A stretch of DNA of 64,000 nt, from assembly GCA_963825865.1 (NCBI GenBank), contig CAWGVG010000006.1, positions 25,001 through 89,000 on the forward strand, given 5' to 3'. Both the position numbers and the translations under genes were made by a program. Under the pieces are notes generated by a model, which had not been told where the DNA came from, did not search any database, and worked only from the letters and a program-made list of their open reading frames with translations. The stretch comes from an uncultured Nitrososphaeraceae archaeon. GTDB taxonomy: Archaea > Thermoproteota > Nitrososphaeria > Nitrososphaerales > Nitrososphaeraceae. Shown here piece by piece: positions 20,389 to 49,372 of the stretch (its first letter is position 1; every line of letters begins with the position of its first letter).

Positions 20389-20391
20389 GGT

Positions 20392-27440: not shown

Positions 27441-27460
27441 TTGTTATAAGGATTCTTCAC

Positions 27461-29815: not shown

Positions 29816-30282
29816 TTCACCTGACCCTCGATAATAGATCTCTATGGGAAAACCCCATTTGCTAGTGACGAATGTATTAAGGGTGATATATCATTATCGG
29901 GTTTATAAAAACCTCTTCAATATCATAAGTCAGTTTATGCAGTTGTAGGCTAGCATCCCAACGACAATTCCTTGTTATGTGTTCTAGTCAATCTAGACAT
30001 AAGATGTTCCTACAAAGAAACATTTAGTAACACTAATTACAATAAAGGATGAAATCATTTTTTCAATTAATTGCTAATTCCGTCTGTAAACTTCTGCAAT
30101 GCTGTAAAATGAGATATACGTTACGTTGCTACGGATAATAATAAGTAATGTACACCGATTAACCACCTGACAAACATTCTATAACTCTAACAGTATTAAT
30201 ACAATGGTTTCTATAGAGCAATCATATTCCTTGCCTTTAAATCCTTAATAATGGGCCGATTCATAATAGAAGGCCATATAAA

Positions 30283-30909
30283 TTGAAAGATGCCTTGATT
30301 TCGGTTTGTCTGATTATAATCATTTCATTAATAATTTTGACGCCATCTTACATTAATGCTTCTAGTAATGCTCCAGTGCTCTTCCGAAAGGGTTCTTCAC
30401 CTTATGGGACACCTTATTTAGAGTGGCTCAAGAACTGGTGGCAGTGGTGGATAAGCATCCCAAATAATGAGCATCCATTTCCAAACTATGATTCCAAGAC
30501 ATGCTCAGTTCATCAGCAAGGCCCAGTATGGTTTCTACCTGACGTTGAGCCACAAGGTCAACTAACACATGCCTCAGTGAAGTATTCATGTGAAATTCCA
30601 AAAGGTAAGGCAATATTCTTTCCTCTCTCACAGTCCTCCTGCTGGTTAGGTAACCCAGAATTTAAGAAATATAGTAACAAGTTGGCACCTAACCCTCAGG
30701 CCGATCAAGAGCTTAAAACATGCGCTGTTTCACCCCAGGATTTTAGTCATTCGGTCGTTCGTCTAGATGGAATAGATTTAGATCCAACTAAATTAGATAG
30801 GGTTACAACAAGTTTTTACAATGTAACAGTACCACCCAACGCTGTTAAAGATCTCTTTGACTTTGGACCTCCTGGCACATCTAGAGGAATAGCTGATGGA
30901 TATGTATGA
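30283..30909 (+). pseudogene. Secreted protein, probably C-terminally truncated
   Basis: Signal peptide; PYG.PY.EW...WWQW..SIP, QGPVWFL, CEIP.GKAIFFP; stops abruptly at ADGYV. Confidence 0.65.
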
Positions 30910-31206
30910 CTCTTTGATTTATAGCATCCTGCACACCCGCAACAATGTTCAACCTGGTTATAATCCATTCCTGCTTCTGTAAACATTTTTTTGAATTCTT
31001 TAATTGAGATCTCATCTAGATAAAGCAATTTCAAAAGACGATGGCATTCTTTAGCGTTCCAATAAGAAGGAGGCAGCAAAACATCGAGTCTTCTCTAACT
31101 TCTCTAACATAGCATTATCTGCATCAGAACCGTAAGCCTTCCACATATTGCAATATTCGCAGTCTTTAGAGTCTTTGAACTTCTTCATTGTTTTTTGTTT
31201 TGACAT
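30905..31206 (-). pseudogene. Small Cys-rich protein, frameshifted
   Basis: MSKQKT..CEYC.. / ..HCCGCAGC. Confidence 0.45.
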
Positions 31207-31226
31207 TTCTTAGATTTCCTTTCTTT

Positions 31227-31589
31227 CTATCTGACTGGTTTGACAAGATACCTGGTGTCCTTATTGCTGCCAATTCGAGAGATTTCTAAGATAGTCTTGC
31301 AGTTCTTTAACTCATCATATATTTTCGATACATGCATTCTACTTACTTCGAATATCTTTTCTTTTCTCTGTTCTGTGTCATTGATGTCTATGACTACGAA
31401 CTGTACTTTCTTTACAGGCTTGCCGTTGAAATCAACTTTGTCTACTACTTTTGTCCTATTTGCAAGAAATTCAAAAACTTTTGTTTCTCCATCTTTGATG
31501 CTGACATAATTTGATTCAATAAAAGATTCGATCTCTTTGTTTTGATAGTATGTTGTTTGTGTTTGTTGTCGATTATTTGATGTTTCCAA
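31227..31589 (-). CDS. Putative single-stranded DNA-binding protein (phage gp32-like)
   Basis: YVSIKDGET start and ISRIGSNKDTRYLV end resemble phage SSB motifs. Confidence 0.55.
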   Translation of the reverse strand: METSNNRQQTQTTYYQNKEIESFIESNYVSIKDGETKVFEFLANRTKVVDKVDFNGKPVKKVQFVVIDINDTEQRKEKIFEVSRMHVSKIYDELKNCKTILEISRIGSNKDTRYLVKPVR

Positions 31590-31731
31590 ATTTTTTATTT
31601 TACCTTAAGATACTCTATGTAATGCCTGGATATATAAATGTATCAAATTGATATTTATGAGCAATATGATATTATATTATCAATAACATATCATTATATA
31701 TTTGTATGAGATTTTAAAGATTAATACATAA

Positions 31732-31926
31732 ATGGCTATACTCCAGACAGCTGCTATTACAGCAGATGATGTTGACATGATAGAATTGAAATTTATATCA
31801 AAAGTAAGCACAATGGGTCCAGATAGGCTGTTCATTCAAATTCCAAAGGAATATTTGAAAACTGCTAAAGGTCTTAAAGGAAAGTATGTGAAAGTCTTCC
31901 TTCAGGAAGTGACGTTGGAAGAGTGA
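31732..31926 (+). CDS. AbrB/MazE-like DNA-binding protein
   Basis: KVSTMG.DRLFIQIPKE...LKGKYVKV. Confidence 0.7.
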   Translation: MAILQTAAITADDVDMIELKFISKVSTMGPDRLFIQIPKEYLKTAKGLKGKYVKVFLQEVTLEE

Positions 31927-32096
31927 GAAGAAATGACTTCAAAATTCAGTTGAACAAACCTCTCTACCTCTCCAGAGGATTATTGAATGCGTCTTCCGTT
32001 GGATGGTGTAGTTTGCCTGGATGTTCTATGTCTATGTGTTTTATGCGTTCTAGATCAGTCGAAAATATTTGTATGCGTTGATAAGAGATTCAATAA

Positions 32097-32795
32097 TCAA
32101 GCAAATTGTATTGAATTTATCACATGTAGTGCTATTGGTAGATATGTCGGAGCATCTAATTGACCCACGTTAAATGCGAACAACATGACCCTTCCATCAT
32201 TAGATGGCATTGAGATATAATAGTCTCTATTATAGAAATTTTTACCACCAAAATAAAGACTGGTAAAACCAGTATATTCCAACTGCCAAGCTGAATTACC
32301 TGATATTGTAATTGCCTTATCTCGGAGATAGGAATCATACTCTATAGTCGCAGTTTGTGGCGTCTGCTGTCGCATGTTATTTATCCTTTCAATAACTAAA
32401 TCATGTGGTGTTTTGATTTTGACTTGCATATCATTTGTATCCAAGAACTTTTCTGGTTCCCTAACGTGTATAGAAAAAGAAGCCTGCTTATCAGGAGAGC
32501 TTATGACTACACTATTGAGTGTTTCATACTCATGCACAGACCAATCACTGGGATATTGTAGTGTATATCCAGATCTATCGCTCTGATATGTTACAAAATC
32601 ACTATCTGCTGTGTTATTTGTAGTAGTTTCCGATGCTGTGTTTTCACTAGGATTATTATTAATATTATCAGAACCTGGAATACCAGGAATTTGTGCATAG
32701 ATATACTGCCGTGGTGCTTGTATTATAATAGCAAACAAAAACAAGAATGTTATTACCATGACGCTAGCAACAAAAATCGTTAATCTGTTAAGCAT
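32097..32795 (-). CDS. PsbP-like secreted protein
   Basis: Signal; FVTY....YTLQYPSDW, ISGNSAWQLEY, YLP....INSIQF. Confidence 0.8.
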   Translation of the reverse strand: MLNRLTIFVASVMVITFLFLFAIIIQAPRQYIYAQIPGIPGSDNINNNPSENTASETTTNNTADSDFVTYQSDRSGYTLQYPSDWSVHEYETLNSVVISSPDKQASFSIHVREPEKFLDTNDMQVKIKTPHDLVIERINNMRQQTPQTATIEYDSYLRDKAITISGNSAWQLEYTGFTSLYFGGKNFYNRDYYISMPSNDGRVMLFAFNVGQLDAPTYLPIALHVINSIQFA

Positions 32796-32915
32796 TCACT
32801 ATTACGGTCATTGTGAATTAAATGTATAAGCGATTTCACAAATTTTTCTGAATTCCCTTTATAGCAAAACGATAAGCTATAAAATCTGTGCAAGAGTTAC
32901 CAAAGATTTTTCATC

Positions 32916-32936
32916 AATTGGACATAATGTCCAATT
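32916..32936. promoter_or_regulatory. Perfect palindrome AATTGGACAT-A-ATGTCCAATT
   Basis: Lies within a ~38-bp direct repeat of 27448-27487. Confidence 0.6.
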
Positions 32937-32957
32937 ACATATTTTATAATTAGTCTT

Positions 32958-35875
32958 CTACCTCTCCAAACGGTTATCAAAGTCCTCTGGATTTGGGTAA
33001 TTGGGTGAATCTGGATGAGACTCTTCTCTATGCTTTACCCGTTTGATATTACAGTCGTTTCCGTCGTTGCCCTCGAAACAATCATCACAATAAAAACACT
33101 TGAATATTTTTCTATAACTGTCCTCATCATTGTTATTTGCTAACACACCATGGTCTTGGGAGACTTGGAATATATCGTCCGCATCGTCCGTATCGTTCGA
33201 ATCCTTGGTATCGCTAGAGATTTGAGCGTAGTTTTCAGCATTATCGTCGGACGGTATTTCATTATTATCGAACGGTATATCGTCCGCATTTTTTATAATA
33301 TCGTCCGAAATATAGCTAGATATATCGCTAGAGATTTGAGCTTGATTCTGGCCTGCAGCCGATCCGTTGGACGGTTCGGACGGTTCGGACGATATTCTCC
33401 AGATCTTCACGACCTTAGACCTTTTTGTCTGATCAGTGAAACCTTTCTCTATTATGATGCCAACTTCTCTAAGGTTTGCCTTTACTTCATTGATCCTCCT
33501 GCTCAGGCTATTAGGCGCCTTTGGCCATGACCTATTTTGGAAGGTTGTATTTATGTGCAGATTGCTGGCAACTGTATTTAGTTCTTCAAGCAATTGTGTC
33601 ATAGTTCCTTTCCATAATTTGCCTTCCCTATCATCTACGAATTGCTTGATGACATTACCTACTACATGCGCATTTATCGTCTCTTCAGATTGAAGGTTTA
33701 TGTTATCGTCATATGCCTTGGTAAAAGCGCCTTCTTTATTGTCCATGGCAGCGAGATATGATTTCACCAATTTCAGCAAAGTCTGCAAATCTTGGATACG
33801 ACTTTAATTCAATTCCTCCATTACTTATAATCCTCAATACTTTGGACAGGATATCAAAGATATACCCTAGCAATTTTGGTCTTATTTCCTCAAATTCTTG
33901 CCATATAACCTGCAATTTCCGTCTTTTTTCCTTGGGTATTGGTTCAAGTTCTAGGATAAGACCCCAATCGATAAGATCTGACTCTTCAGCACCTAGGTTT
34001 ATCCCATTAATCCCTATACACCGCTTGAAACTATAGATCACGTCCTCATCGTCTGTGAACAATTCCCTTTTAGAAAATGCATCCCCAGTTACACCCCTAC
34101 ACAAAGCATCTGATACCTTTTTAGGGATATCAGACACATTCTCATAATAGCAGACATAGTTATGCATCATTTGCTGTGCCAACTGTGCAATATCTGTAGG
34201 AAGTGATAGCGTCATTGCAGGGCTTGGGTCCACTAGAATTCTTAACAACTGTTGAAATGTGGTCTTTGCTGCTTTTGGCTCTCCATGCAACATTAATGCG
34301 GGTTTTATGATATCTGGGTAGAACATTGCAATGATGTAGCACTTTAACAGTAGTTTTTTATCCTCACCTGAGACATTGATCAATTGCATGAACTGGTCAA
34401 AGATATCTCTGGGATATTCTCTTACGGGGTAAACTTGTGGTTTTTGGTCTGCTATACCTTCTAAAGATTATAGGTGCTTGGCCTATGGTCCAACCATTTT
34501 CTTCTGAAGAAGTAGTTATCTTTACAGATTGACAATCCTTATTTGCCAAATCGTAATAGATCGTGAATGGACCCTCTTTGATCTTGGAAACTCTCAACTC
34601 AAGTTCCTTTCTAACACCTTCAAAGTCCGCCCTTGCCTGCAATATGTTGAGGATACTCGCTATATGCTCGCCGTTTAACATGGCGCTTTTGCCAGATGCT
34701 TCATAGAATTTATGGCAAAGCCAATGCTTGAACCTAGCGCCTTTGAGTTGAAGGGTTTCTAAATGGCCATCTATATTTACAGTTGCGTAAGGGTTCCCAA
34801 ATTGATCTTGAAAGAATTCAGGGCAATGGCCTTCAACTAGCTCTATGGCCTTTTGAGTCCAGGCTTATCTGGTTTATTCTTAGCCAGACCCTGAGAGGTT
34901 TGAATAATATCGTCCGAATCACCCATATCGTCCGACGACGGCGACATTGCAGCCTTGTTAGTTCCATAGATAAACATGGTTGCATCACGCCATTGTCTAT
35001 CAAATTCACTATCGTCTAGCGGGGATACAATGCTTACCGTTCCAATCTCTAGCAAACCCCTTTATTGTCTCTAAATCTAGAATGTTTTGGTTGCGTTTGA
35101 TAAGTGATTCCATAGTGCGCAGTAGTGCCTCGTGACGGTTATGACCTTCATATACCTTGAAATCTGACTTGAACAGATCTTCAATTGGTATCTGATTTGG
35201 ATTTTTTGATGATCTTCCATTTCCATTTTCTTGTAGATATGAAATACCATACCTCTTGCAAACATTATCTATATGCTTGCCTCAAAATCGTCTGCAATAA
35301 CTGGCTCTTGTGTTCCTATTATCTGGAATTGTTGTCCATTCTTATGCATAGAAGGAGAGCAGAATAATATTCCATGTTCGCCTAAGCCTTTAACTTCGAT
35401 TGCGGGGATCTCATGCTCTCTATTTTATCCGTTAAACCTGCTGTTGGTTTTATTTTTATCATTGCTCTTCTTTGTAAATGGCTTGTATGAATAGACATAG
35501 ACGTGCGCTCTATTTGTGTCATCTGGATGCTGCCTCAACTAAAGTCCATTGGCTTAATTCTTTAATTGAAATGGCTTTACCATCATATTTGCAAACCTCT
35601 TCTATAGCCTTTGAGTTATCTAGATCAATTCCATTAAGGTTTAACCCTGGTTTTTGATTATTATGCCATACCTTACCTAAAATAACAGCCATACCGTCTG
35701 AAAATTTGTTTTCAGATTTCCATTGGTTATGAAGTTCTTCAGGAATTGGTTTATCTTGCCATTGGTCCCAAGGAACTACTGGTTTTTTATTTTTAGTATC
35801 TGCAGGTATTACATTTACGCCTATATCATAACGCCAAAAGTCAGTCCATTCGTTGATTGTTGCAATACTAGCCAG
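32958..35875 (-). pseudogene. Prim-pol (bifunctional primase-polymerase) fused to a helicase-like ATPase, multiple frameshifts
   Basis: CTG start; GVNVIP.DTKNKKP...W..WQ, GIDLD, RAHVYVY, IEVKG....LFCSPS.HKNG; LHGEPKAAKTT, YENVS, GINGIN; C-terminal CFYC..H Zn finger. Confidence 0.8.
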
Positions 35876-36065
35876 TTTTAAAAGTCACCTTTTTTTGAAG
35901 AAAAAGTAGCATCATTTTTATTTCAAGTATTTCTGCACGAGTGTGAGCCTGTGCCTTCTGAAAGCTATCAATTCTTCCCAAGACATCGTCAAGCTTTTTA
36001 TCTCTATTTGGTGTGGAAAAGAAAGACTTATCCTTTGGATCGTTGTAGTTATCTTGAGAGGTCAT
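35868..36065 (-). CDS. Small hypothetical protein
   Basis: In operon with the replication gene. Confidence 0.5.
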   Translation of the reverse strand: MTSQDNYNDPKDKSFFSTPNRDKKLDDVLGRIDSFQKAQAHTRAEILEIKMMLLFLQKKVTFKTG

Positions 36066-36082
36066 TTAAGCAATCTCATCTC

Positions 36083-36391
36083 CTATGACATTGCCTGATG
36101 ACTGCTCTGGTCTGTTGGTTGAGTTGGGGTTGGCTGGTAAACCTTGTCCTCCTCAACCTTTTTTGTAATTGTATGACAACTATGTCGACAAATGAGCCTT
36201 AATCTATTTCCAGTAATTACGTCACTATAATTACCTGTGCATTGATTACAAGGTGCTAAACAAACTTCAATTTCACGTATTATTATATTTTCAGATTTGT
36301 TTTTTATAAGGTCATTAGTAGCAGTATTATCTACAGAACTTGATTTATAGGTGCCTAATACTATTGTCGAGGGTTTGGTTTGGTGACTCAT
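36083..36391 (-). CDS. Cys-rich hypothetical protein
   Basis: CLAPCNQC...ICRHSCH. Confidence 0.6.
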   Translation of the reverse strand: MSHQTKPSTIVLGTYKSSSVDNTATNDLIKNKSENIIIREIEVCLAPCNQCTGNYSDVITGNRLRLICRHSCHTITKKVEEDKVYQPTPTQPTDQSSHQAMS

Positions 36392-36555
36392 TGTTCTGTG
36401 ATGGCACCCCTGATACCGACACTATTGTTATTTTTATTACCGATCTTAATCAGTTCATTAATCAGTTGGTCGTATGTTTGACTTTTATGTCCTATTTTCC
36501 TCAGGAGCTCCCTAGTTGGTTTCTTAACAATTATTGTTGTGTAAACTTCAGGCAT
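36388..36555 (-). CDS. RHH DNA-binding protein
   Basis: TTIIVKKPTRELLRKIGHKSQTYDQLINELI; paralog of 43712-43852. Confidence 0.8.
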   Translation of the reverse strand: MPEVYTTIIVKKPTRELLRKIGHKSQTYDQLINELIKIGNKNNNSVGIRGAITEQ

Positions 36556-36598
36556 ATTTGCAAATATATATAACACAGAGATACTGACATATAATACG

Positions 36599-36625
36599 CC
36601 TATACTCCTATACTAGACCTATACT
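36599..36625 (+). promoter_or_regulatory. Three direct CCTATACT repeats in the divergent promoter
   Basis: At 36599, 36607 and 36618. Confidence 0.55.
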
Positions 36626-36629
36626 ACGT

Positions 36630-37598
36630 ATGACAAAAGTAAGTAGCGAGACAGACGAGTTGAATCATTTACGAAAGGAAAATCAGGAGTTGAAGCACAA
36701 ATTGGCTGAACTACGAGGTGTAGCATCACTAGAAGAGACGAACATATCTCTAAGACAAATGTCAATATTGGATTACATAAAAAAGAATCCAGGAAAAAAT
36801 AAACAGAATGTAATTGAATGGGGAGAATCTCTGAAGATCCCTATAGGATCAAGAGTAACCATTATGAATGCGATATCTGATCTTGATAATTTAGGAATAA
36901 TAAAGGTTGAAAAAGACAAACCCAATAGCACAATACACAAATTATATGTTAATGAAGACAGTATTTTGGTTTTCTTAATTGAAGAACTTGATTCTTTTGA
37001 AAAAGACTTTTCTGTTTTAATATAAAAAGTAAAAGACAAAATAAAAGGAAGAGATTTTGGCGATATAACTTACTCTAAAAATGAAATAGCATTCTTTACT
37101 TATTTCTTTGTAGTTTATCAACAATTCATTGGAATGCTTGTATTACATGCCATATCTACATGGCCAGCCAAATTAAATAACGAAGATACACTCAAAAGAC
37201 TATATGCAATGCTATTCTCATGGCTGAGAAAAATCCAATTAAACCTGACAAATGTTTTTGATTTTAGATCATATTATCCATACACATATTATATCGATGT
37301 GCAGGCGACTATGGCTCAAGCTTGGTTTGTGTTACAACCTCAATATATGAAAGATTTACTTTGCATAGCAAAAGAATATGATGCAGTAAGTGAAATAGAA
37401 AATGTATTCGACGTGGTATGGAAAATAAGTAAACCATTTTTTAGATATTCTATGTGGGCTAATCCTCCGCAGTCTGGAAAACAAAACAAAGATGGCAGTA
37501 TGGCCTACAAAGATCGAAATAGCAAACAGCTTGCTGAACTAAATCCAGAAAACTGGAGAGAACCATTAATGAAATGGGAAGGTCAACAAGAACAATAA
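36630..37598 (+). pseudogene. Large wHTH regulator, frameshift near 37020
   Basis: ILDYIKKNPG.NKQ...SRVT.MNAI.DL...GII; paralog of 42594-43655. Confidence 0.75.
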
Positions 37599-37643
37599 AT
37601 GCTCAACATTATTATAAATCAATATTAATCTTGTTTAGTTTAA

Positions 37644-39140
37644 TCACTTATCCGCTAGTTTTAAAAGACCAGAGGAGAACAAAGATTGCGCCATTGTATT
37701 GAACTGTTTATTATCTTGAGTATGACATAATCCTCCAATTAGTTTTTCTAACATGGACTGCATATTGTCGAATTGCTTTTGCATCATAGTTAATTGGTTT
37801 TCCTTCTGCTTCTGTGACTCTAATGCTTCTTGGTATCCTTCAAAGCTCATTATCATTTTACATTTGCTGCAGAACTTGCTATCTACAGTATTACCTTCAT
37901 TGCAGTTAGGGCACATTTTGGGATTTAGGGTATCAATTGGAACATTATTTTTATTCTTTGTGACAATGCCATATGCTTCAAGCAATGATTCAGAAGATTC
38001 ATTACCAAAATAGTGGATGTATTTTTGTACCATGTTGCTATTCATTGTCCAACCAGCATGTTGGTTCAATGTGTTGGATTTTAGCTTTGTAGATTTTTCA
38101 GTTAATGCTGAATGGCGCCTTATGTATGGGTTAAATGGTTTTGTGAGTAAGGTTTTGATTTTCTCTTTGTCTTCATTTGATACTGTTGCATCTTGTAATA
38201 ATTTAGGAAAAAATTCTTCTTTGTAGTCTTTGTAAATCTGCTCCAGACCACCAGTAGATAGTGGTTTACCTGTATTACTCCTACCTAGTCCTACAATAAG
38301 TGGAGATTTAAGGTTATTACGGCTTGGGTGATTTGATAGCCATTCTTTGATATAAGGTATTGATTGGATTAATGGTATATGTCTTGAACCAGTTTTACCG
38401 TTGACTAGTACCTCTGCATACTGATACTTACCATTGTCTACAGTTTTGAACACGATATCTTTTATTTTCAGGTTCAATATTTCATGGGGACGTGCAGACA
38501 AATCTCTAGCCATTGTATGATAGCACCGATCTCGTTTGTTTGTAACCCATTTTAAGAAAAGAACATCGTCTTCTTGCGTCCATAGATCAGATGGTTTGTA
38601 GCAACTTACCTCTTTTCTCTTTAGCTGGGGTACACCCATAATACATGCAGGTTTTCTCTCATTTTCAGATAGTTCATTTCTTCTTTTAGGAGTATCTACA
38701 TTAGGATAACAAAGCCATTTAAAAAATCTAAATAATATGATACGTTTTGTATTGTAACTCCCTATCCATTTATGCAATGGGTCATCATTTTCTGATTTTC
38801 TACAACTGTCTAAATATAACAAAACATCATCCCTTGCCATATCCTCAAATCGTTTTTCTATGCCAACAGACTTTGAGAGTTCTGACAGAAATTGAATTGT
38901 GTATTTTATGTAGCTGAGTCTAGGATTAACCTCTCTTTTCATCGCTATAATATATTCAGATATTGTCAGGGCGTTTTCTTTAGATAATCTACTCCTATCT
39001 TTTAGGACTAATTCGCAAAATTTGGCCGTAGTAAAACCTTCTGTTGCCAAAGTAATCTTTCTATCTAATACGACATCTCTTTCTTCATCCTTTGACGCTG
39101 CTAATATTGCTTCTACTGCTTTGTTTGAACGCCTGACCAT
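37644..39140 (-). CDS. Tyrosine recombinase/integrase with C-terminal Zn ribbon
   Basis: SARPHE, GKTG, YIRRHS, AGW, KYIH; CPNC...CSKC. Confidence 0.93.
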   Translation of the reverse strand: MVRRSNKAVEAILAASKDEERDVVLDRKITLATEGFTTAKFCELVLKDRSRLSKENALTISEYIIAMKREVNPRLSYIKYTIQFLSELSKSVGIEKRFEDMARDDVLLYLDSCRKSENDDPLHKWIGSYNTKRIILFRFFKWLCYPNVDTPKRRNELSENERKPACIMGVPQLKRKEVSCYKPSDLWTQEDDVLFLKWVTNKRDRCYHTMARDLSARPHEILNLKIKDIVFKTVDNGKYQYAEVLVNGKTGSRHIPLIQSIPYIKEWLSNHPSRNNLKSPLIVGLGRSNTGKPLSTGGLEQIYKDYKEEFFPKLLQDATVSNEDKEKIKTLLTKPFNPYIRRHSALTEKSTKLKSNTLNQHAGWTMNSNMVQKYIHYFGNESSESLLEAYGIVTKNKNNVPIDTLNPKMCPNCNEGNTVDSKFCSKCKMIMSFEGYQEALESQKQKENQLTMMQKQFDNMQSMLEKLIGGLCHTQDNKQFNTMAQSLFSSGLLKLADK

Positions 39141-39287
39141 ATAGATTTAAGATTAAATGATTAGATAATAATACTTTCCATGAGAAATTATTATTTGCAC
39201 ATAATACTAAAGGAAATGAGTTTTCGAGAATAAAGAATAAAAAGATGAAGAGAGGATGCAAAGCGCTACTTTTGCTCTTTTTTTATT

Positions 39288-39383
39288 TTACTTAGGCTTG
39301 TCCGCATTTTTAGCAACTTTTTGTCGTGTCTTCTTGCTTGCGGAAGCAAGTCCTCTTTTACTACTGGTAATTTTTTTAGCCAT
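39288..39383 (-). CDS. Very small basic protein (KGG/stress-like)
   Basis: MAKKITSSKRGLASASKKTRQKVAKNADKPK. Confidence 0.45.
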   Translation of the reverse strand: MAKKITSSKRGLASASKKTRQKVAKNADKPK

Positions 39384-39908
39384 CTAGCAAACTTAATTTG
39401 CTTTATTATATATTAATATCTATATATAATATTTGTACATTCTTTGATAAGTTATCCTTGCTATAATTTTAATTAAATTCTTTTTGTACACTTTCTCTAT
39501 TTTTGTAATAAGAGCATTCTCTTAAAACATCATAACCAATTCTAACCTCTGCTTGTATTGTTATTTTCTGTCTCTAAAGAATACATAAATAAACACAAAA
39601 GCATTTAACTGAGAAGGAATAATCCATTGAGCATATGCGTTATTTGCTTTTGTCAGTAGCACTTGCAACCCACAAAAACAGTAACAGATAATCGCATGAT
39701 TCCAAACAATAATTTATTATTGTTCATTTAGATATATAGTACAGTAGATTATAAAAATAGAACAATCCTAATTATTTATCGTATGGATAATAAATCAAAG
39801 TCTTTTACGATTAGAATTAGATAATCTAATTTCTCGTTGTCAGAACAGCCTATTCTGTATTTCTAGATTGATTACAGAATTTACCTACAATCTTTTGAAG
39901 ATATGGTA

Positions 39909-40025
39909 GGTTTGTTTATCTCCAAAAGTATTATCGATGCTCATGGTAGCAAGGTTTGGGCTAAAAATAATGCAGATGGGAAAGGAGATACGTTTTACTT
40001 TAGTCTGCCAATAAGCAAGAGATAT
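39909..40025 (+). pseudogene. Histidine kinase HATPase C-terminal fragment
   Basis: GLFISKSIIDAHGSKVWAKNNADGKGDTFYFSLP. Confidence 0.8.
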
Positions 40026-40494
40026 TTAATACAAAAAAATCGAAAGCCTAACTTTTTTCTTTTAGAATTCTGTTTCTGAAAGATGAGTGACAAAAATGAG
40101 TCAAATTTGTTCAGAATCCCGCTAACCACGTCAGATATATACGTCTTAAATTAGCTTCCAAGACATAGATGTAATAATCTCGCATATTGCTCCTTAGACA
40201 TGCTCTAAGTTATCAATAAAAAACCAAATTATATGTCAATATTAATATACAATTATCTTATTGTCGTTTTAAGTTCCAATATAGAATTTCCTTTCGTAGC
40301 TGATTTTGAAATGATATGTGCAAATCTCGAATGCGAGACTTCTGATTTGCAGATTGATTATATATAGCTTAATTTCGAACTATGCTAAGATTGCTTGTTG
40401 ATGTTGTTAGATCAATAGAATCAAAGTCCGCAGTATCTACAATGGCAGCGTAATCAATCGCTTTATTTATCTTATAGTGTAGCGATTATGGCAT

Positions 40495-40731
40495 ATGGAT
40501 GAGAAGCCACAACAAGGAATAGCAGATACGTGGCGTAAAAAAATTGAAATGATAGGCATAAACATAAAAGATTTAGAGTTGGATGACGAAACAGAAGCAC
40601 GCCTTAAATTAAAAACAAACCTTATTAATCAACATTTAATAAATGAATTAGATAAAATCGGTCTACAGCTAATAAATATTAGAGCAACATTTAATGGTAA
40701 ACTTGTAGTACTTTTAGAGCCGAAAGTTTAA
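40495..40731 (+). CDS. Hypothetical protein
   Basis: 78-aa ORF. Confidence 0.55.
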   Translation: MDEKPQQGIADTWRKKIEMIGINIKDLELDDETEARLKLKTNLINQHLINELDKIGLQLINIRATFNGKLVVLLEPKV

Positions 40732-41226
40732 CAAGATAAAGTACTATGAAGTATTGACAGAAAAAAGAAAAGATCTCATGTGTATAGATCTAAAACAGCC
40801 ATGAAACATCTAGTTGTGTGTTTTTCTTAATGTCTTTATTTATCTAAACTATTTTATCTTAATTGCGGATTTAGACTCAACTTTATATAATTTTGTCTTA
40901 GTCTGGGAGGCCGTGCTGGATTGTTATATATATTCACAGAATTTAGCATATACAAGTATATACATAAGACGTTGTTTGAAATATACATCAGTCCAAGTAT
41001 CAGAATGGCCTAGACGATAGATTGATTTGGGTCGGATAATATCGTTCGGATCGTTCGAAATAAGAGAAGAACCTATCAAGCCTTGTGGTATATCTATCTC
41101 TGGTTACTGGAGAATTCATCGCGTACTTAAATATTGAATAGGGATCTAGGCATTCTATCAATTCTTTTTGTTTTCACCATATTGTTTGTAAAACCCACTA
41201 AAAAGGAGTGATATCACAATGGGCCC

Positions 41227-41259
41227 AAGGGAGTTCGAAGCCTCGGTTCAAACTCCTTT
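41227..41259. other. Candidate integrase att/core site (13-7-13 inverted repeat)
   Basis: AAGGGAGTTCGAA-GCCTCGG-TTCAAACTCCTTT, 53 nt upstream of the integrase. Confidence 0.45.
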
Positions 41260-41312
41260 AAGTTACCTTAAAATAGTAACACCACAAGTACTGAACACCA
41301 ACAAAGTATCAA

Positions 41313-42582
41313 ATGAGAGATCTATACAACAGACAAAAGACATTAGCAAACTGGATTAAGAGAGTAAATGAAGATCTTATAGATGCCGACAAAGCAGATG
41401 TTTTAAAACTCATAGAACATATGCAGGATAGAGAAAAAAGCATTCTTTGGATAGTTCGGTGTATAGTCAACCTTCTTTCCATAAGAAGACAGCTTGGGAA
41501 ATCATTTAGAGATGCTACTAAAGATGATATAAGGTTATTTTTGAAATGGATGGAACAGAAAGGCTACAAGGCATCTACTAACGAAAAGTTCAGACAAGTT
41601 TTGAAACTATTCTATAAGATCATATATGGCAATAATGAATATTATCCAGAGCAGGTAAAGTGGTTCTCCTCAAAACTTGGAAAAGAAAAGACTGGTAAGG
41701 AAACCAGTATGGATATGGCAGAATATTTGGAGGAAAACGAGATTCAAAGAATAGTAGAAGTGGCTTGTACAACTCAAAAGAAGGCTTTTCTTGCGTGTAT
41801 GTATGAGAGTGGAGCAAGGCCAGAGGAATTCTTGAGACTTACTAATGCAGATATAAGGATTGATTCTAATGGCGCAGTTCTTATGCTCAGAGGAAAAACA
41901 GGAGAGAGAAGAGTGAGAATAATATCTTTTGCAAAACTGCTGCAACAATGGATAGAAGTACATCCACTCAGATCCCAGAACTATTATCCGATTTGGATAA
42001 GTGAAGCTACCAACTTCAAAAATAATGCACTAGGACTCCGGGGTGCTGAAAAGGTAATTGAAGAGGTCTTACCAGGAGCAGGACTAACGAATAAACATGC
42101 ACGTTTGTATATATTGAGGCACTCTAGAGCTACACACCTTGCTAAACACCTTACAGAAGCTCAAATGTGTGTATTTTTTGGCTGGGTACAAGGAACACAG
42201 GTAGTTAGGCGTTACATACATCTATCAGGTAAGGATGTAGACAATGTCCTCCTGGCAATAAATGAAGGAGACAAGGCAAGAGTAACAGAAGAGTATCAAT
42301 TAAAACCCATAAAGTGCACTAGATGTTCTGAAGCTATTAGTCCAGGAATCGAACTTTTGCTCTAGGTGTTCATTACCAGTAAATTTAAGTAAAGAACTCA
42401 CAAGAGAAATGGAACTTGAGAAAGAGAACAAAGAGCTTAAAGAAAAGTATAACCATGATATGAAAATACTTCGTGATGAGATGAATCAGAAATTTAGTCA
42501 TATTATGACATTGATACAGCAAAACCCAATGTTGGCACATGTCAAGCCAGAAGTACTTACAAAGAAAATAGATAGCAAATGA
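41313..42582 (+). CDS. Tyrosine integrase (frameshift near 42350 in the Zn ribbon)
   Basis: YESGARPEE, GKTG, YILRHSRAT, FGW, RRYIH; CTRC / FCSRC tail ends TGA 42580-82. Confidence 0.9.
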
Positions 42583-42593
42583 AATGGTTGTAC

Positions 42594-43655
42594 TTAAAAT
42601 TTGTTAGACGGTTCTAGTGCATCTTCTAGGTCAAAGGAAATTCCACTCTTTTTTAGCTTTTCTTTATATGCGGCTAAAGATGACCTCCAATCATTCTTTA
42701 ACATTTCTTTTAGTTCACGTCTTTCTGTTATTTGTTCTTCTGACATGTATAGATATGGTTCTTGAAAGAGAAAATCATCTGCTAATCCCGTATATGGATA
42801 TATCTTGAAACTAATTTTCCATGCATCATTAAGCAAGCCATGGATATCATTTCGCAGATTAATTTTCTTGGACTGACGATGCAAGGACATTAGAAAAACA
42901 GGATGTAAGAGAAAGCAATTCCGCACAAAGTTTCCAATTACGGGACTGTATAAAGTTCCGGCTGTTGCTTGTTCAAATGGTGGTAGGCCGATCTTGATTT
43001 TAAAGAGCTCAGACATTTTAAAAAGCAAGTCTGTCATCTTGGAAATAACAATATTTAACAATTTTCTAGCATACGCTTTGTCACCAATGCTAAATGGCCA
43101 GTCCAGTAAGGCGTATACTATGTAAGAATTTAAAACGTGTCTGTATATTTCAATTAGGTACAGTAGAAATCCTTGGGCATCAATGTCAGAATTATTCTCA
43201 ACTGAACGTTCTGCCTTTGAATCTTTTAGCTTAATTAATAATAATAAAAAGGAATTTTGGAAATCATCAAGTTCCAATATTTTCATTGCTATGATATTAT
43301 CAGTATTTATAAAAAGATGATGCATATGGCTGTTATTTTCATCAGGGCTACTGATTATAATTCCATAATCAATCAATTTATCCATTAGATTCCAAGCAGG
43401 TCTTCTAGAGAGTGAACCTATACTTTCAAAATAATCTACTAATTTTTGCTTGATACAACCAGGGTTCTTTCTTATGTATTCAATGGCTAATAATTCATTT
43501 TTTGTGAAATTATTGTCTTCATCCTCTCTTATGCTTTCGTTGTATTCTTTAATTTTTGACCTTTTTGCATACTCATCTAGAGTTTGAGCATGCTGTATTA
43601 TCTTCTCAATTGCAGTTTTATCAACAATAATTTTTTTGTCCCATGTCGTATACAG
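42594..43655 (-). CDS. Large wHTH regulator
   Basis: Frame is open upstream of 43385 to a CTG at 43655; IEYIRKNPGCIKQ...SRRPAWNLMDKLIDYGII. Confidence 0.75.
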   Translation of the reverse strand: MYTTWDKKIIVDKTAIEKIIQHAQTLDEYAKRSKIKEYNESIREDEDNNFTKNELLAIEYIRKNPGCIKQKLVDYFESIGSLSRRPAWNLMDKLIDYGIIISSPDENNSHMHHLFINTDNIIAMKILELDDFQNSFLLLLIKLKDSKAERSVENNSDIDAQGFLLYLIEIYRHVLNSYIVYALLDWPFSIGDKAYARKLLNIVISKMTDLLFKMSELFKIKIGLPPFEQATAGTLYSPVIGNFVRNCFLLHPVFLMSLHRQSKKINLRNDIHGLLNDAWKISFKIYPYTGLADDFLFQEPYLYMSEEQITERRELKEMLKNDWRSSLAAYKEKLKKSGISFDLEDALEPSNKF

Positions 43656-43711
43656 TAGTATATGGAAATATGTTTCGTAGTATATAACGCTATGTAATTC
43701 ATTATTTCTAT

Positions 43712-43852
43712 ATGTCTAAAACAACAATTCTTGTCGAAAGCAAGACTAGAGAGAATTTAAAACAACTAGGTACAAAGGGCCAGACATACGACGACCTTAT
43801 TAATGAATTGATAGAAATGAAAAGAAATTATCAGGACCCACTCGAATCGTAG
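43712..43852 (+). CDS. RHH DNA-binding protein
   Basis: MSKTTILVESKTRENLKQLGTKGQTYDDLINELI. Confidence 0.8.
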   Translation: MSKTTILVESKTRENLKQLGTKGQTYDDLINELIEMKRNYQDPLES

Positions 43853-43904
43853 AATTGAGACCCTGCAATCAAGTGAATCCTAAAGCACATAGGAGTTGAG
43901 CCCC

Positions 43905-44066
43905 ATGAGTGAAAGTACAATATCTTCAGAAGTTAATAAAAATATATGTGAAGCATTAGCCTGCTTTGCAGAGGCTACTACTAAGATTGAGTTAAAACTA
44001 GGCCGGAAGGGAACAATCACCCTAGATCTCTGTAAGGACTGTGTGAAGCGGTTTCAGCATAACTGA
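43905..44066 (+). CDS. Small zinc-finger protein
   Basis: CEALAC...AT.......LDLCKDC. Confidence 0.7.
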   Translation: MSESTISSEVNKNICEALACFAEATTKIELKLGRKGTITLDLCKDCVKRFQHN

Positions 44067-44079
44067 GGTTAATGAAAAA

Positions 44080-45408
44080 ATGATTTCCAGCAACCTAATA
44101 AAAAATGCACCAATAAGCTCTAGCCAAAATGCACCATTAGATCTATTGGGACAATGTAGCGGCAGCGGCAACAGGGTGAAAAGGCGTTACACCAGAGCAC
44201 ATCATATCCAGAATCTAGCTATCAGCCATTATAACAAGAATGGCAAACCCATAACCTATGCAGATTTACTATCAAGCGGCATTGCACATAGTAAGAAACA
44301 AGCTCAAGATACACTCAAACGTAGTCTTCATAGAGATATTGTTTTTACTGTAGAGAAACACAAACCGCAGAAATACTATCCTACATGCCTTAAGTCTGAA
44401 ATTTTGAAAAGGAAACTAGCAAAGAATGCACCAGTAAAGGTCACAGGGGTAGGGTTCTCTGACGAACCTCATTTTTCGGTTAAAACTAATAATGATAGGA
44501 CAACAACTAGCAACGGATGCAATGAATCCATAGTAGCCAATCAGTCATTGGAAGGTTATGTCCTGCCATTGCTGCCTTCGGCGCCATTGCATATACACAA
44601 AATCCAATTCAAGCTAAAGATTATACCAGACTGCTATGCTGAACTTGGTAATCTTTCCATAGATAGTAGGAACAAGGGAAAAGAGCATGTTGAAGTTATA
44701 GGCAAAGTCAGAGTCTCTTATCGCTTCTACCCAAATGGCACAATTCTAGTTTTTACCGAGAGTAGCAACAATCCATTCAAGCTTGAAGATGAAATAGACC
44801 GTACCAGCATTATTGCATTCTTTGGTCAAGTACGTGATAGACTTGTTACTTTTCTTGCAGATACACATGAAAGGATAATACCGGGAATATTAGAATGGGA
44901 GCTAACGCAGTGTGATATAAATAAGGATATCACGATCGGTGAAGCTCTTCAGTATACAGGGCTAAAGGTGCAGGTTAAGCATTTTGACCGCCTGTTTAGA
45001 GTCTACATAAAATCCATTGGTAAGGACACAGCTTGCAGGGTAGAAGAATCGCTCAATCCAATGAAGCCTGCTGTTCAAGTAATAAGTGAAATTTTTGCTA
45101 ATCCAAATGATAGAGAACATCTGCAGCGGCAGCAGTCTTCTTCTGATGGTAGTAGTAGAAGGAAAATCGATGAAATTCATGATATGGTGAAGGGCCTTCT
45201 TAAGCTGCATAAGCTCGAATCCAGCCATTGGAGAAGAACTACTAGAAGGAGGGGGGTCGTAATTTTATGTCAGAAAACAGCCATGCCTCCAAATCGTAAT
45301 CAAAATATAATCCCCATCTTCCTTTCTCATAGAACAAGAGCAAGAACAAGTTTTTTCCTCAGAGAAGGCTGTAATGGATTTTATCACTTTAAGAGGGATT
45401 CAGACTAG
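44080..45408 (+). CDS. wHTH + Rep_trans-like replication initiator/relaxase (putative)
   Basis: N-terminal wHTH-like region; LTQCDINKD, LFRVYIK, CRVEE resemble Rep_trans motifs; 3' end probably extended by a frameshift. Confidence 0.55.
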   Translation: MISSNLIKNAPISSSQNAPLDLLGQCSGSGNRVKRRYTRAHHIQNLAISHYNKNGKPITYADLLSSGIAHSKKQAQDTLKRSLHRDIVFTVEKHKPQKYYPTCLKSEILKRKLAKNAPVKVTGVGFSDEPHFSVKTNNDRTTTSNGCNESIVANQSLEGYVLPLLPSAPLHIHKIQFKLKIIPDCYAELGNLSIDSRNKGKEHVEVIGKVRVSYRFYPNGTILVFTESSNNPFKLEDEIDRTSIIAFFGQVRDRLVTFLADTHERIIPGILEWELTQCDINKDITIGEALQYTGLKVQVKHFDRLFRVYIKSIGKDTACRVEESLNPMKPAVQVISEIFANPNDREHLQRQQSSSDGSSRRKIDEIHDMVKGLLKLHKLESSHWRRTTRRRGVVILCQKTAMPPNRNQNIIPIFLSHRTRARTSFFLREGCNGFYHFKRDSD

Positions 45409-47414
45409 AACAGGAGTAGATGAGAAGCATTTACCTTTATTTGTATTAAAGGAAATGATGGACAATGCTTTAGACCATGTGGAGAAATCAGGCGGTGGCA
45501 ATACTACTACCACTCAGCAGCAACCTAAAGTCACCGTAGCCATAACTCTTGAAGAAAATTCTCTACTCCATATCAGAGTATCTAATTCTAACCATTCAAA
45601 CAAAGGCGTATTTACAGAAGGTAATGTAATGAAAATATTTAGCTATACTAGTTCTATGAAGGAGCAAGCGGAACCAATTCAAAATCACAAGGGGTGCGCT
45701 TGGAGATGCCTTCAAGGAATTATTATCTATACCTTATGCACTTGCGATAGAAGGGCTTGGATTTGACAAATGGGAAAAACCATTAATCATTAGGGATAGT
45801 GCTAGTAGAAAAGAATTCATCGTCAAGCTTAAGGTCGATAAAGCAAACCAGGGGATTGAACCCATATTTGCTGTTGAGGATTTGTCATCCGATAACAAGT
45901 GGTATTATCTATCATCCTTATATAAAACAGACAAGATACACGAAATACAAGTTGATCTTTTCTTGCCTTTTGATTCGCGTGGCGCCGCCGAATCTATGAT
46001 TAGAAAATTTAAAGACCTACTAAATCAGTATTTGTATAATACACATGTTGTCTTTAATTTCAGGATTGATGATCCCGCTAATCGAAACATCTGGATGAAC
46101 CTTGAAACACAGCAGGCACAGAAAATTGTTACCAATACCAAGAAAAATAATAATAAACTTCAACAGCAAGAACGACAACAGCAGCAACTTACGAGCATTC
46201 ACTACTATACATTTACTGAATTTGAAAATCTACTATATGGCCTTGAAGACAATAACGCATATGCGTATGATAAACTATATCGAGTATTCAGAGAATGCAC
46301 AAACCTAAAGAAGACAAACGAATTAAAGTCCCTTACAGTTGGAGAATTAAAGAATGCAGATAAAGATACAAAATTAAGATTGTTTAGAAGTTTAAGAAAT
46401 GCCCTTCCACCTAAGGAGAAATTAGACCTACCGCTCGGAGTTAGCAGTAAATCCAAAGATAGGAAAGCAGCAATCAGAAAACGAATTGAACATATGGGAT
46501 ACTCAGTTATTAATTTCAACTACAAATGTACAGAAGGACATGCAAAGTATACTTCTCAAGACCTCAAGGGTGACAAGACATCAGTAGCGAGAGCAATTCC
46601 TGCTACTACTGCCAATGAAAATTTTGATAATACAGTGCAATTTCCATTCTTGTTTGAAGCAGCAATCGCTACAGTAGTTGGAAACTTCAACAGAAAGGTG
46701 TATCAGCTAATCAACAACTCACCTAGATACAATACCACAGTATTCAAAGTAGATTTGGGAGAGAATATGTTTAGCTGGCTTAACAAACAGGGCAGCATTC
46801 AATATGGATATTCAATCGAAAATATTCTTGACAAATACGGGTATACGGGAAATCACGATCCTAAGAAACCAAGATCTAGGAAACCTAACAGCATAATTAT
46901 GGTTAATCTGATTTCTCCAAAACTAGAGTATAAAGACTATGGCAAGACTTCTATTAATTTGGAGCCTTTCAGAGACGCAATAGGCGAGACACTATACAAG
47001 GTATGTAGTGGTGGTGGTGGCCGCTCTGGCGACGACAGGCCATCAAAGGTTTCTGTTGTATTAGAAATCATGACTGAAAGGAAACAGAAATGGTATTCAC
47101 TAGACACAGCATCGGAAAGGCAAAAATATCTATGGACCCAAAGTGATGGATTTTACGCCAGTCGCAAGCGATTGATCGAATATGGTTATACAAACGATGA
47201 AATCGATAGAGAATACATAACGGGATTGATCAAAGATATCTGCGAGAACAAATTAGATGTAAAGTGTGAAGACATAGGAATTATCGCAGCAGATAGGGCG
47301 CAGCTTTACTTTAAAGGGAAGTGGATGGATGTTGGCCTTAAAGAAATCAGAGAATTAAGTCTCTATGGAATCGACCTGCTAATTATAGAAAAAGAAGGTA
47401 TTGCAGAACAACTA
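45374..47414 (+). pseudogene. Fused Topo VI B-A (Topo VIII-like) topoisomerase, N-terminal part, cut by IS630
   Basis: LKEMMDNALD (N box), frameshift near 45655, SKRNQFKITRGALGDAFK (G2 box), NLISPKLEYKDYGKTS (transducer), WTQSDGFY, LIIEKEG. Confidence 0.85.
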
Positions 47415-48576
47415 AGTGAAGTGTCTGAATTTATGTCGTTATTTGTTCATTACATAACCTAGATTTGGAAATAGTTAAAGCTTAGTAAATGAGATATTTT
47501 CATTCTGTGAATCATCCTTTCAAACTCAAACTTACCATAGGACAGAGGAACAAATTAAAGTCATTTATGAAGAATACGGGTAACAAAAAAGAATACCGCA
47601 GGCTACTGGCTATACTCCAAAAAGCTGAAGGTAGAACTTACGAAGACATAGCAAATGAACACGGAGTCAGCAGCAGGTCTGTACCAGAGATGGGTTGCTC
47701 CTATATCCAAAGTGGGATAGATAGAATAAAGATGAAGAAACCTGGCGGAACAAAATCTGGCATAACAGATGAAAACAGAGAGATTATTCTATCAGCATTA
47801 TTTAACGACCCGCACATCTTTGGTTATCTTAGAAATACATGGAGTCTGAGATCACTTGCAAACTGTCTGACAAATGAGCTAGGAATCCCAATCAGCTTCA
47901 AGCACCTGCAGAGAATAACAAAAGATTTAGGAGTTAGGTGCAAAAGGCCAAAACTGGAATTGCTACATGGAGGAGAGGATTATGAAGAGGGAAAAGAGAA
48001 AGTGCAAAACTACAAACAGATAGCTTCAGCTCTGAAAAAAAGGGAGTTGTAGTAGCATTTGAAGATGAGACTATTATAACACAGAAACCTTGTATTCGAA
48101 AATCCATGAGTTTTGAAGGTGAGCAACAAAGGATAGAACATACTGGTAGTAGAAAGAAGTTCTCTGCATACATATCCATGGTATGGCCTGAAGAGAAATT
48201 AATGACGTATGATTTCTATGATAAAATGGATTCTACGAATACTATCGACCATCTAGAGAATCTCAAGACAAACATTATGAAAAATGATTGGTGGAAAAGA
48301 CTGGTACTCATATGGGATAACGCTTCATATCATGTAAGCCTAATGGTACGGAATTATATCAATGCACAGAAAGAAGACTGGGCTGACCATAATCCACCTT
48401 CCAAAGAAAGCACCATACCTAAATCCGAATGAAAGGAAAGTAAACCAGCAAATAAAGTCAGATGTATGTGCGAATAGATTCTATGAACATATGGAAGACC
48501 AGAAAGCTGCAGTATCAGAATATTTGGACAAACGATTTGGAAGATGGTATGACGACATTAGTTATGACACTTGACT
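47415..48576 (+). mobile_element. IS630-family element B, copy 2 (direct repeat of 2798-3958)
   Basis: Near-identical sequence, same TIRs, TA flanks, a few indels. Confidence 0.95.
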
Positions 48577-48578: not shown

Positions 48579-49372
48579 TCAGAAGAAATATCTACTGGGA
48601 TAAGAAGAGAATTGTCAAAAAATCAATCAGGATGGATGGCTAAAGAAGTCATGAATTTGATATACGAAAGAACAGGAGTCAAATATCATGAGGTTCACAT
48701 TTACAGACTATTACACAAATGGGGTTTCAGTCCTAAAGTACCAAGAATGAGATTTGTTAATGCTGCATCAAAGGAAGACAAAGGCAAATTTCGAAAAAAG
48801 CTAAAAGGATAATCTCGCATATACCTAAAGGATTCACTGTTGCTGTTGCTGCTGATGAATCCATCTTTACACACGATTCTTTGATTCGGAGGAAGATGTG
48901 GACTGTAGATAGAATAAGACCAATTGTAACAATGACTGGATCACATCAAAGGACTTGTGTATTTGGTGCCCTATGTATAGACGGTAGACAATTCTTCCGA
49001 CAATATGATAGCTTTAACCAATACACTTTTCTGGATTATATCAAACGTATGCAAAAGAGATTTGGCCGACTGATATTGTTTATCGATAGAGCACGTCAAC
49101 ATCATCGCTCCAAGATGGTAAGAAAGTACATTAAAGACAGAAGAGATGTATTAAAAGTGATATACTTTCCAAAAAAAAGGTTCGTCTGAATTTAATGCTG
49201 TTGAAGAATGCTGGAGACAGGGAAAATATGATCTGCTAGTATCGAAATACTATCCTAGATTTGAAAATCTAACATATGCCATAGCTAACTACTATAGAAC
49301 AAAGCGTTTCAAACTACACATAGTCAAATACCTATCGAGGGACATGAGTTAGCGAATTAATGTTAGTTGGTA
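48579..49372 (+). mobile_element. IS630-family element A, right part
   Basis: SEEISTGIRRELS..W..KEV...GVKYH...RLLHKWGFSPKVP continues orf 2564; ADES, FIDRA, EFNAVEE; end ATGTTAGTTGGTA|TA. Confidence 0.85.

Follow-up and report, generated by a model that had tools for sequence, protein, structure and literature searches.

A broken gene for a fused type IIB DNA topoisomerase lies in the DNA of an uncultured Nitrososphaeraceae archaeon, an ammonia oxidiser of soil. The stretch analysed, called the window here, is 64,000 nucleotides long (positions 25,001 to 89,000 of contig CAWGVG010000006.1, assembly GCA_963825865.1), and the gene is probably the pseudogene of a mobile-element topoisomerase from a large sister clade of Topo VIII in which the gating of DNA cleavage would be altered. 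The type IIB enzymes (Topo VI, Spo11, Topo VIII and Mini-A) share one common cleavage core, and how this core is restrained from mistimed cutting remains open; one safeguard, named in a structure paper of 2026, is an Arg-Glu clasp (PMC13040014). In hundreds of sequence clusters of the family to which the window's gene belongs, the catalytic residues are all kept, the clasp Arg is gone and the adenine-binding Asp of the GHKL domain has become Asn.

The family has, in a single chain, GHKL, H2TH and transducer domains, a short 5Y-CAP domain, a Toprim domain and a helical tail. Library models matched it weakly (Topo VI-B, E 8.8e-8; Topo VI-A, E 7.3e-5; also DUF2399 and HATPase_c), with sub-threshold or Toprim-only matches in Pfam, NCBIfam and PHROGs and nothing relevant from sequence and profile searches of PDB chains. 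The NCBIfam scores of protein P0013 fall below the Topo VI cut-offs (31.1 vs 274 bits for the B subunit, 21.8 vs 424 for A). Based on hhalign, a 19-sequence profile of the family aligns with the Topo VIII of Paenibacillus polymyxa plasmid pPPM1a over 584 columns (98.1%, E 6.9e-14) and with that of H. jeotgali plasmid 5 over 640 columns (99.4%, E 2.2e-21). These two form our set of four classical Topo VIII together with the enzymes of Pseudomonas pBASL58 and pMPPla107, and an unfiltered hmmsearch matched all four (E 1.8e-24 to 2.9e-10). The AlphaFold model of P0007, an intact homolog of 952 amino acids (aa), has a pLDDT of 87.7 and finds Topo VI-B (1z5a, E 4.7e-20) as its best Foldseek match. 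For an intact 355-aa open reading frame (ORF) of the window, which represents the A half in a second copy described below, the model (pLDDT 92.3) is closest to Topo VI-A (1d3y, E 3.6e-9), followed by Topo VI-DNA complexes and Spo11 (8uru, E 1.2e-5), with JetD far below. Alignments and models thus show a family homologous to Topo VIII over its full length and predicted to fold as Topo VI-B joined to Topo VI-A. The initial annotation, made from the letters of the window without database searches, had proposed a divergent type IIB subfamily; the profile alignments, the predicted folds and the domain order support it, and the structure prediction that it had suggested as a check returned the two Topo VI folds and only a weak likeness to JetD.

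Two sites set the family apart. The first lies four residues before the catalytic Tyr (position -4), where the 154 aligned rows have Ser in 113 cases, Gln in 12, Asn in 11, Asp in 10 and Arg in 6, the Arg appearing at three scattered places on the tree. Position -5 is Gln in 107 rows and Arg in 5, and position -8 is Arg in 69. The family's Ser aligns under the Arg of SQRQLYYAIRP in the pPPM1a enzyme and of EMRQLYYKFRP in that of H. jeotgali, the Arg-Pro from +3 being common to all (hhalign). The second site is the G1 box of the GHKL domain. Its Asp column holds Asn in 94 of 105 sequences and Asp in 6, and a DxGxG box is present in 5 of 140. The core of the family reads V-[RS]-N-[ST]-N, and a subclade with Gln at -4 keeps V-x-D-N-G-x-G in the same columns, which places the conserved Asn in the position of the G1 Asp. 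All four classical Topo VIII have DxGxG, RxxY/FY..RP and RVE[LI]N[AS].

The remaining catalytic columns are invariant or nearly so. The catalytic Tyr is found in 153 of 154 rows and the +3 Arg in 137 of 154, with Pro (78) or Lys (41) at +4; the N-box Asn (105/105), the two G2 Gly (108/108 and 109/109), the switch Lys of YGKS/YGKT (135/135), the Toprim Glu (151/151), the DxD pair (144/144 and 142/143) and the Glu of the T2BI box (131/131) are likewise kept, the neighbouring T2BI Arg being Arg in 121 of 131 and Lys in 10. The switch Lys, whose putative role follows from its position, is matched to the GK in each of the two classical enzymes compared by hhalign. This conservation speaks for working enzymes rather than decay. 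Since the window's copy is broken three times, and since the 34 family matches in its genome, spread over at least 10 places, are all fragments or stop-carrying (none full length, most with stops), the odd residues could be put down to the decay of a dead gene, or to errors of sequencing or assembly, with no meaning for a family. We consider this extremely improbable, as identical Ser and Asn occur in intact homologs from many independent assemblies in which every other catalytic residue is conserved. Being shared by intact homologs, the missing Arg and the unusual G1 box are family traits, as the initial annotation had taken them to be, and the intact homologs have mostly Ser in place of the Arg.

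The G1 Asp makes the adenine contact in GHKL ATPases, and GyrB and Hsp90 mutants with Asn in its place lose ATP binding. In Topo VI of Methanosarcina mazei, a salt bridge links R102, which precedes Y106 by four residues, to the T2BI residue E342; this 'electrostatic clasp' keeps the Tyr off the DNA, an E342Q mutant is hyper-cleaving, and the authors describe the clasp as highly conserved in Top6A and Spo11 (PMC13040014). The family keeps the T2BI Glu, which is also a metal ligand, and not the clasp Arg. From the missing Arg together with the Asp-to-Asn change we infer the altered chemistry that the initial annotation had suspected: gating would be changed, and ATP would not be used in the standard way. 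Live members would be homodimeric enzymes that cleave DNA and pass strands, dimerisation being assumed from the family to which they belong. Their catalytic Tyr would be unrestrained by an Arg-Glu clasp of the Topo VI type, and their nucleotide pocket would be unable to bind adenine in the standard GHKL way. Cleavage may then be gated differently, the enzyme being more cleavage-prone, ATP-independent or dependent on another nucleotide.

Several points weigh against altered gating of this kind. A Spo11 R131 mutant reportedly loses break formation. The Arg may aid catalysis, so lower cleavage is equally possible as freed cleavage. An Arg at -5 (5 of 154 rows) or at -8 (69 of 154) might substitute for the one at -4. 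The near-invariance of N-box, G2 box and switch Lys suggests that nucleotide may still be bound, and the term 'ATP-independent' may be wrong. For every member, finally, altered gating is a prediction that we infer from sequence.

It is also possible, though in our view doubtful, that the family consists of divergent, ATP-dependent plasmid topoisomerases of the Topo VIII kind, as described by Gadelle 2014 (PMC4117785) and Takahashi 2020 (PMC7671362), which work unchanged because Ser and Asn are compensated elsewhere, for example by Arg at +3, -8 or -5. Besides the whole-length homology and the invariant N-box, G2 box and switch Lys, the two groups have in common a single chain that combines the B and A parts (in some cases two genes, split in Topo VIII within the transducer), Arg-Pro at +3/+4, a G2 box of the GxxGxA form, a short 5Y-CAP, a C-terminal extension and a T2BI box of the type RVE[LI]N[AS], which reads RVEINS or RVEIDA in the family and RVELNS, RVEINA or RVELNA in the classical enzymes. 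Both are also carried by plasmids or integrated elements, the family's segment being one that would circularise, with two integrases and a patchy distribution (3 of 151 genomes). The nearest ESM Atlas clusters, a lead only, are fused PF21180+HATPase_c proteins (score 0.98). However, unchanged function is hard to square with the GyrB and Hsp90 mutants, and the 82 published Topo VIII have Arg or His at -4 in every case (RxxY/FY 59, RxxMY 18, HxxY/FY 5; thus Arg 77, His 5), with N, G1 and G2 boxes conserved in 93% of them (PMC7671362). In contrast, the family has Ser at -4 and NS[ND] in G1 instead of DxGxG, N and G2 being kept. The Arg is, moreover, one half of a clasp whose disruption alters cleavage (PMC13040014). 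The proteins are about 150-200 aa longer than the 751 aa of the pPPM1a enzyme, and their hosts are Nitrososphaerales, unlike the 4 archaeal members among the 82, which are all Euryarchaeota (PMC7671362).

Ordinary Topo VIII membership is further opposed by the trees. These were built from the 5Y-CAP/Toprim part, with the four classical Topo VIII and the host's Top6A on the outgroup side. A tree of 112 rows places the 107 family rows on one side (SH-aLRT 96), and a careful tree of 56 rows gives support of 99/97 for the family and 96/85 for the classical enzymes, with bootstrap values not fully settled. By this measure the family is shown as a sequence clade apart from the four classical Topo VIII sampled, and the nesting within described Topo VIII that the initial annotation had allowed for was not seen with respect to these four. 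The trees hold 4 of the 82 published sequences and have a single very long outgroup branch, and the family may be nested inside a published subgroup outside this sample. With regard to the published GxxGxG and GxxGxA groups, it is placed outside the 4 sequences sampled, 78 of the 82 being absent from the trees. A six-frame search of pPPM1a with the A2 profile gave no match at E<=10; homology to this plasmid's enzyme emerged only by hhalign and the unfiltered hmmsearch.

The initial annotation had also mentioned a nuclease, resolvase or defence role. A nuclease or defence module, similar to JetD/MksG of Wadjet or to GajA, would use the GHKL part only as a clamp or sensor. The Toprim domain is common to JetD and the family, DUF2399 (the JetD C-terminal Toprim) is the best Pfam match on A parts (E 8.5e-7 and 1.6e-6), the segment of the window that bears the gene also includes a SIR2-like gene, and the family resembles non-ATPase relatives in its degenerate G1 box. 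Nevertheless, we hold a nuclease or defence role to be quite unlikely. The fold of the 355-aa ORF matches JetD poorly (7til, E 6.7e-3, TM score 0.25, below seven Topo VI-A/Spo11 chains), whereas the TM score with Topo VI-A is 0.58. Unlike JetD/MksG, the family has a conserved Tyr in its winged-helix domain, kept in nearly every row, and a GHKL-transducer part. Additionally, no conserved defence partner was found among the neighbours of the 7 loci scanned, and the SIR2 gene belongs to what looks like a separate composite transposon.

Compared with the other type IIB enzymes, the family resembles Topo VI (1z5a, 1d3y, 2zbk, 9o0g; M. mazei, S. shibatae) in the predicted folds of both halves and in key residues, namely the catalytic Tyr, the acidic residues of Toprim, the Glu of T2BI and the switch Lys. 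Topo VI differs in its two separate subunits, its full 5Y-CAP, its canonical G1 box and its R102-E342 clasp (PMC13040014). The host genome encodes a normal Topo VI of its own, with both A and B, and a PF21180 search of that genome found the host Top6A only. With Mini-A (Takahashi 2020) the family shares a short 5Y-CAP next to Toprim and carriage by mobile elements; the 355-aa ORF is of similar size, and phrog_6247, annotated 'DNA topoisomerase', matches it (E 3.4e-5). Mini-A, however, is a stand-alone A protein of about 300 aa in viral contexts; its T2BI box is of the WELDAL type, the Arg is retained and a B partner is lacking (PMC7671362), whereas the family has RVEI[ND][SA], no Arg and a B part that is fused or adjacent, and its members were not met in IMG/VR. 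The likeness to Spo11 lies in the A-like fold (8uru, E 1.2e-5), although Spo11 keeps the clasp Arg (PMC13040014). TOPOVIBL likewise has degenerate nucleotide-binding boxes in a B part (PMC7671362), but in the family the N and G2 boxes are fully conserved and the change is confined to G1.

The window's own copy can be read by translation and motif search as a single frame of about 930 aa across two frameshifts and a 1.16-kb insertion sequence (IS) of the IS630 type. With P0007 as the tblastn query, residues 36-937 are covered over four in-frame pieces, all on the + strand. Piece 1 (45374..45658) is the start of the GHKL (Bergerat) domain, with KEMMDNALD (45449) as its N-box and VSNSN (45578) where the G1 box is expected; it matches HATPase_c (Pfam, E 0.011) and can be aligned to the N-terminal ends of 19 intact homologs. 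At frameshift 1 (45646..45663, +) the frame switches between ...FSYTSSM and RSKRNQFKITRGALGDA, a site at which the homologs run unbroken as YSSKRNQFKI[ST]RGALGDA. Piece 2 (585 aa, 45660..47414) carries the G2 box TRGALGDA (45687), H2TH, the transducer, whose putative switch Lys lies in YKDYGKTS (46929), the 5Y-CAP and Toprim's Glu in IEKEG (47385). Its 5Y-CAP includes WTQSDGFYASRK, with TQSDGFY starting at 47136, the Ser codon at 47142-47144 and the Tyr codon at 47154-47156. Piece 3 (3961..4245) continues the Toprim domain from APFADEKGIALLYTRGFLTDY to ...ILTDFDDSG, with the DxD metal site in TDFDDSG at 4078 (Pfam DUF2399, E 6.8e-5; Toprim, E 0.14). Frameshift 2 (4236..4245, +), one base short of the frame of the homolog P0004, falls between ...NHLKTLQL and GKHASVYSKE. 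Piece 4 (4236..4715) has the T2BI box RVEINS (4290), a helical C-terminal extension, matched by helices at residues 838-944 in the P0007 model, and a stop codon at 4713-4715. All nine motifs of the initial annotation were found where it had placed them.

Both frameshifts are small indels, neither in a long homopolymer, and among the contigs of four sequencing runs, which were short only, none spans either of them. The join of 47414 to 3961 is exact: removal of the IS restores ...IEKEGIAEQL followed by APFADEKG..., residue for residue as in P0004 (89% identical). The tblastn coverage and this junction bear out the earlier reconstruction of one polypeptide from two frameshifts and a join to 3961-4715. 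Programmed frameshifting was considered and rejected, as an IS also interrupts the gene and 43 kb separate its two ends. The window's copy of the fused gene is a dead gene, a relic with no function of its own. The initial annotation had emphasised neither this nor the loss of the GHKL part from the second copy described next. Just upstream, and sharing 35 bases with the beginning of the broken gene, is a 442-aa ORF (44080-45408, +) with no family match. A homolog of it (54% identity) stands directly beside the intact topoisomerase gene of locus L019, and a partial homolog occurs in L015; its product may be a functional partner of the topoisomerase.

A second copy lies between the two ends of the broken gene, on the - strand. 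Its A-like ORF (355 aa, intact, 25342..26409) carries WTQSTVWY (TQSTVWY at 26382), IEK, FTDYDASG and RVEIDA. Directly upstream, with an overlap of 4 bases, a B-like ORF (344 aa, 26406..27440) holds H2TH and transducer only; it is truncated N-terminally, matching only residues 269-569 of B subunits 571-601 aa long, and a tblastn search upstream of it found no GHKL coding sequence. With the GHKL part absent, we read this copy as a member of a two-gene subclade that has lost its ATPase part. Its neighbour on the tree, P0155, is likewise 355 aa long, with 64% identity across the A part where the two align. The catalytic Tyr is residue 16 in the 355-aa ORF vs about residue 100 in the open frame of the host Top6A, and Ile-Pro stands at +3/+4 after it (YLFIP), where the broken gene has YASRK. 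The initial annotation had listed two paralogs with TQS and no Arg; both indeed have TQS, but the second is a two-gene copy and not a fused paralog. A 170-aa ORF (24833-25345, -) with no convincing family match overlaps the end of the A-like ORF by 4 bases.

The IS that interrupts the gene is one of two IS630-type copies in direct orientation. Copy 2 (47415..48576, +) is flanked by TA (47413-14 and 48577-78), and copy 1 lies at 2798..3958 (+). The element duplicates TA and has inverted ends AGT[G/C]AAGTGTC; the copies differ at 6 internal places, 3 of them indels, and at 2 more in the flanks. A domain scan found HTH_23/28/32 and DDE_3 in the ORFs of copy 1, and in copy 2 the transposase frame is split into three ORFs. 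The outer flanks are the halves of a second IS630-type transposase gene, HTH_29 on the left (2564..2797, +) and HTH_33 with DDE_3 on the right (48579..49189, +). Copy 1 thus stands between the HTH half and the 3' part of the topoisomerase gene, and copy 2 between the 5' part of the topoisomerase gene and the HTH_33/DDE_3 half. In contigs of two soil runs from two studies, an empty site was found in which the left outer flank is joined straight to 48577 onward, and it is on this ground that we take the outer flanks to be one gene elsewhere.

Circularising the segment between the two direct copies (3961..47414, 43,454 bp) rejoins the topoisomerase gene. The swapped flanks have a single-step explanation, namely that a circular element with one IS fused with the chromosome through that IS, and our reading is that the segment is probably an episome so integrated. 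The gene would have been killed by two frameshifts and the IS630-type insertion, and the fusion of the element (43,454 bp plus one IS) would then have set its ends 43 kb apart. Fusion may have proceeded by recombination between two IS copies or by cointegrate-forming transposition; since TA is the obligatory target, both routes yield identical junctions. An inversion was rejected, as both IS copies are in direct orientation. The order chromosome-IS-element-IS-chromosome could, on the other hand, be an assembler's path through repeats: no contig in the four runs (short contigs only) bridges the gene-IS junction at 47414/47415, and the high read cover of the IS is explained by its many copies. 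Two runs contain a contig in which 951 bases of the IS are skipped and 47450 is linked to 48402 through two other letters; this is a miniature form of the IS that lacks the transposase and occurs in soil metagenomes.

Integration of an episome is consistent with the contents of the segment, which include genes for two tyrosine recombinases, a number of IS elements, one SIR2-like gene and the second copy of the topoisomerase. Recombinase 1 (37644-39140, -) also has a double zinc ribbon, and its C-terminus has a homolog at the edge of L019, next to the intact topoisomerase gene; recombinase 2 (41313-42365, +) is likewise inside the IS-bounded segment. A third, diverged IS630-type copy (10039-11083, +), 71-83% identical to the other two, has HTH and DDE_3 ORFs. 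About 8 kb are enclosed by an inverted pair of rve-type IS (12823-13339 and 21371-21887, 99%), with a further repeat pair with rve-type IS copies at 13539-13845 and 20862-21168. The enclosed stretch has ORFs at 15333-16298 (+) and 17518-18621 (-); these comprise a transposase of the DDE_Tnp_1 type and a protein of 367 aa with a SIR2_2 domain, and the whole resembles a composite transposon with a possible defence gene.

The family extends well beyond this genome. The 585-aa piece has 50 homologs, about 20 of them intact (896-983 aa, 32-41% identity). A search of 1.84 billion proteins with the 19-sequence profile, counted in cluster representatives, gave 2082, 1245 and 486 matches at E<=1e-3, 1e-10 and 1e-30, respectively, and the best 150 of the 2082 all have E<1e-74. 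In a pattern scan with one genome per species, 17 of 17 confirmed loci come from Nitrososphaerales, Nitrososphaeraceae, Nitrosopolaris, Nitrosopumilales or unclassified Thermoproteota metagenome-assembled genomes (MAGs). Of the 14 loci examined among these 17, 8 have an open frame of at least 884 aa, 3 are visibly broken and 3 are short or cut by a contig end. Within the class the family was present in 3 of 151 genomes, including that of the window (4.98 Mb, 62 contigs, 82% complete). A scan of IMG/VR gave 65 pattern matches, none of them confirmed, and tblastn of P0156 against plasmids gave no match. An integrase adjoins the topoisomerase gene in locus L023. Taken together, sequence comparison indicates a large family, centred on Nitrososphaerales and carried by mobile elements.

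Around the remaining genes, neighbours resemble unrelated host genes, and no conserved partner was identified from the loci examined. The broken copies of two Nitrosopolaris MAGs (L017, 10620-14313; L020, 4712-8408) have the same pair of neighbours, ORFs of 859/860 aa and 371 aa; the large ORF of L020, the one scanned of the pair, matches AAA_23 and SMC_N. Two Nitrososphaerales MAGs (L025 and L026) have the variant WTRNTVFYYSRP, with Arg at -5, Asn at -4 and G2 RGALGDG, a motif that may be an alternative supply of the basic residue. Within the window's own genome (G000), family pieces lie on contigs C50, C3, C45, C62, C2, C10, C30, C5 and C36, and the many fragments are remains of repeated invasions by such elements.

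To date, the accessible literature (PMC7671362, PMC4117785, PMC8185306, PMC6563490, PMC11894792 and PMC11302465, with supplements and most subscription journals beyond reach) yielded no description of this family, of a thaumarchaeal Topo VIII or of the Ser/Gln variant. Table 1 of PMC8185306 assigns to Nitrososphaeria one type IIB enzyme and no additional one, and the survey of integrated elements in Thaumarchaeota reports, in the text available, type IA topoisomerases only (PMC6563490). The family is thus, from its sequences, an apparently undescribed sister clade of described Topo VIII.

In summary, the window's copy is valuable as a pointer to a family through which Nitrososphaerales join the hosts of plasmid-type topoisomerases. 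Its intact members are natural proteins with which one can ask whether the clasp is dispensable, what has replaced it and whether ATP is still used by the GHKL domain. More tentatively, and with less confidence than in the relationship itself, they may form a natural 'unclasped' type IIB lineage on Nitrososphaerales mobile elements, in which DNA would be broken or passed without ATP gating or with another nucleotide. If true, this lineage would be the natural counterpart of the hyper-cleaving E342Q enzyme and would stand next to Topo VI and Spo11 as a third functional class.

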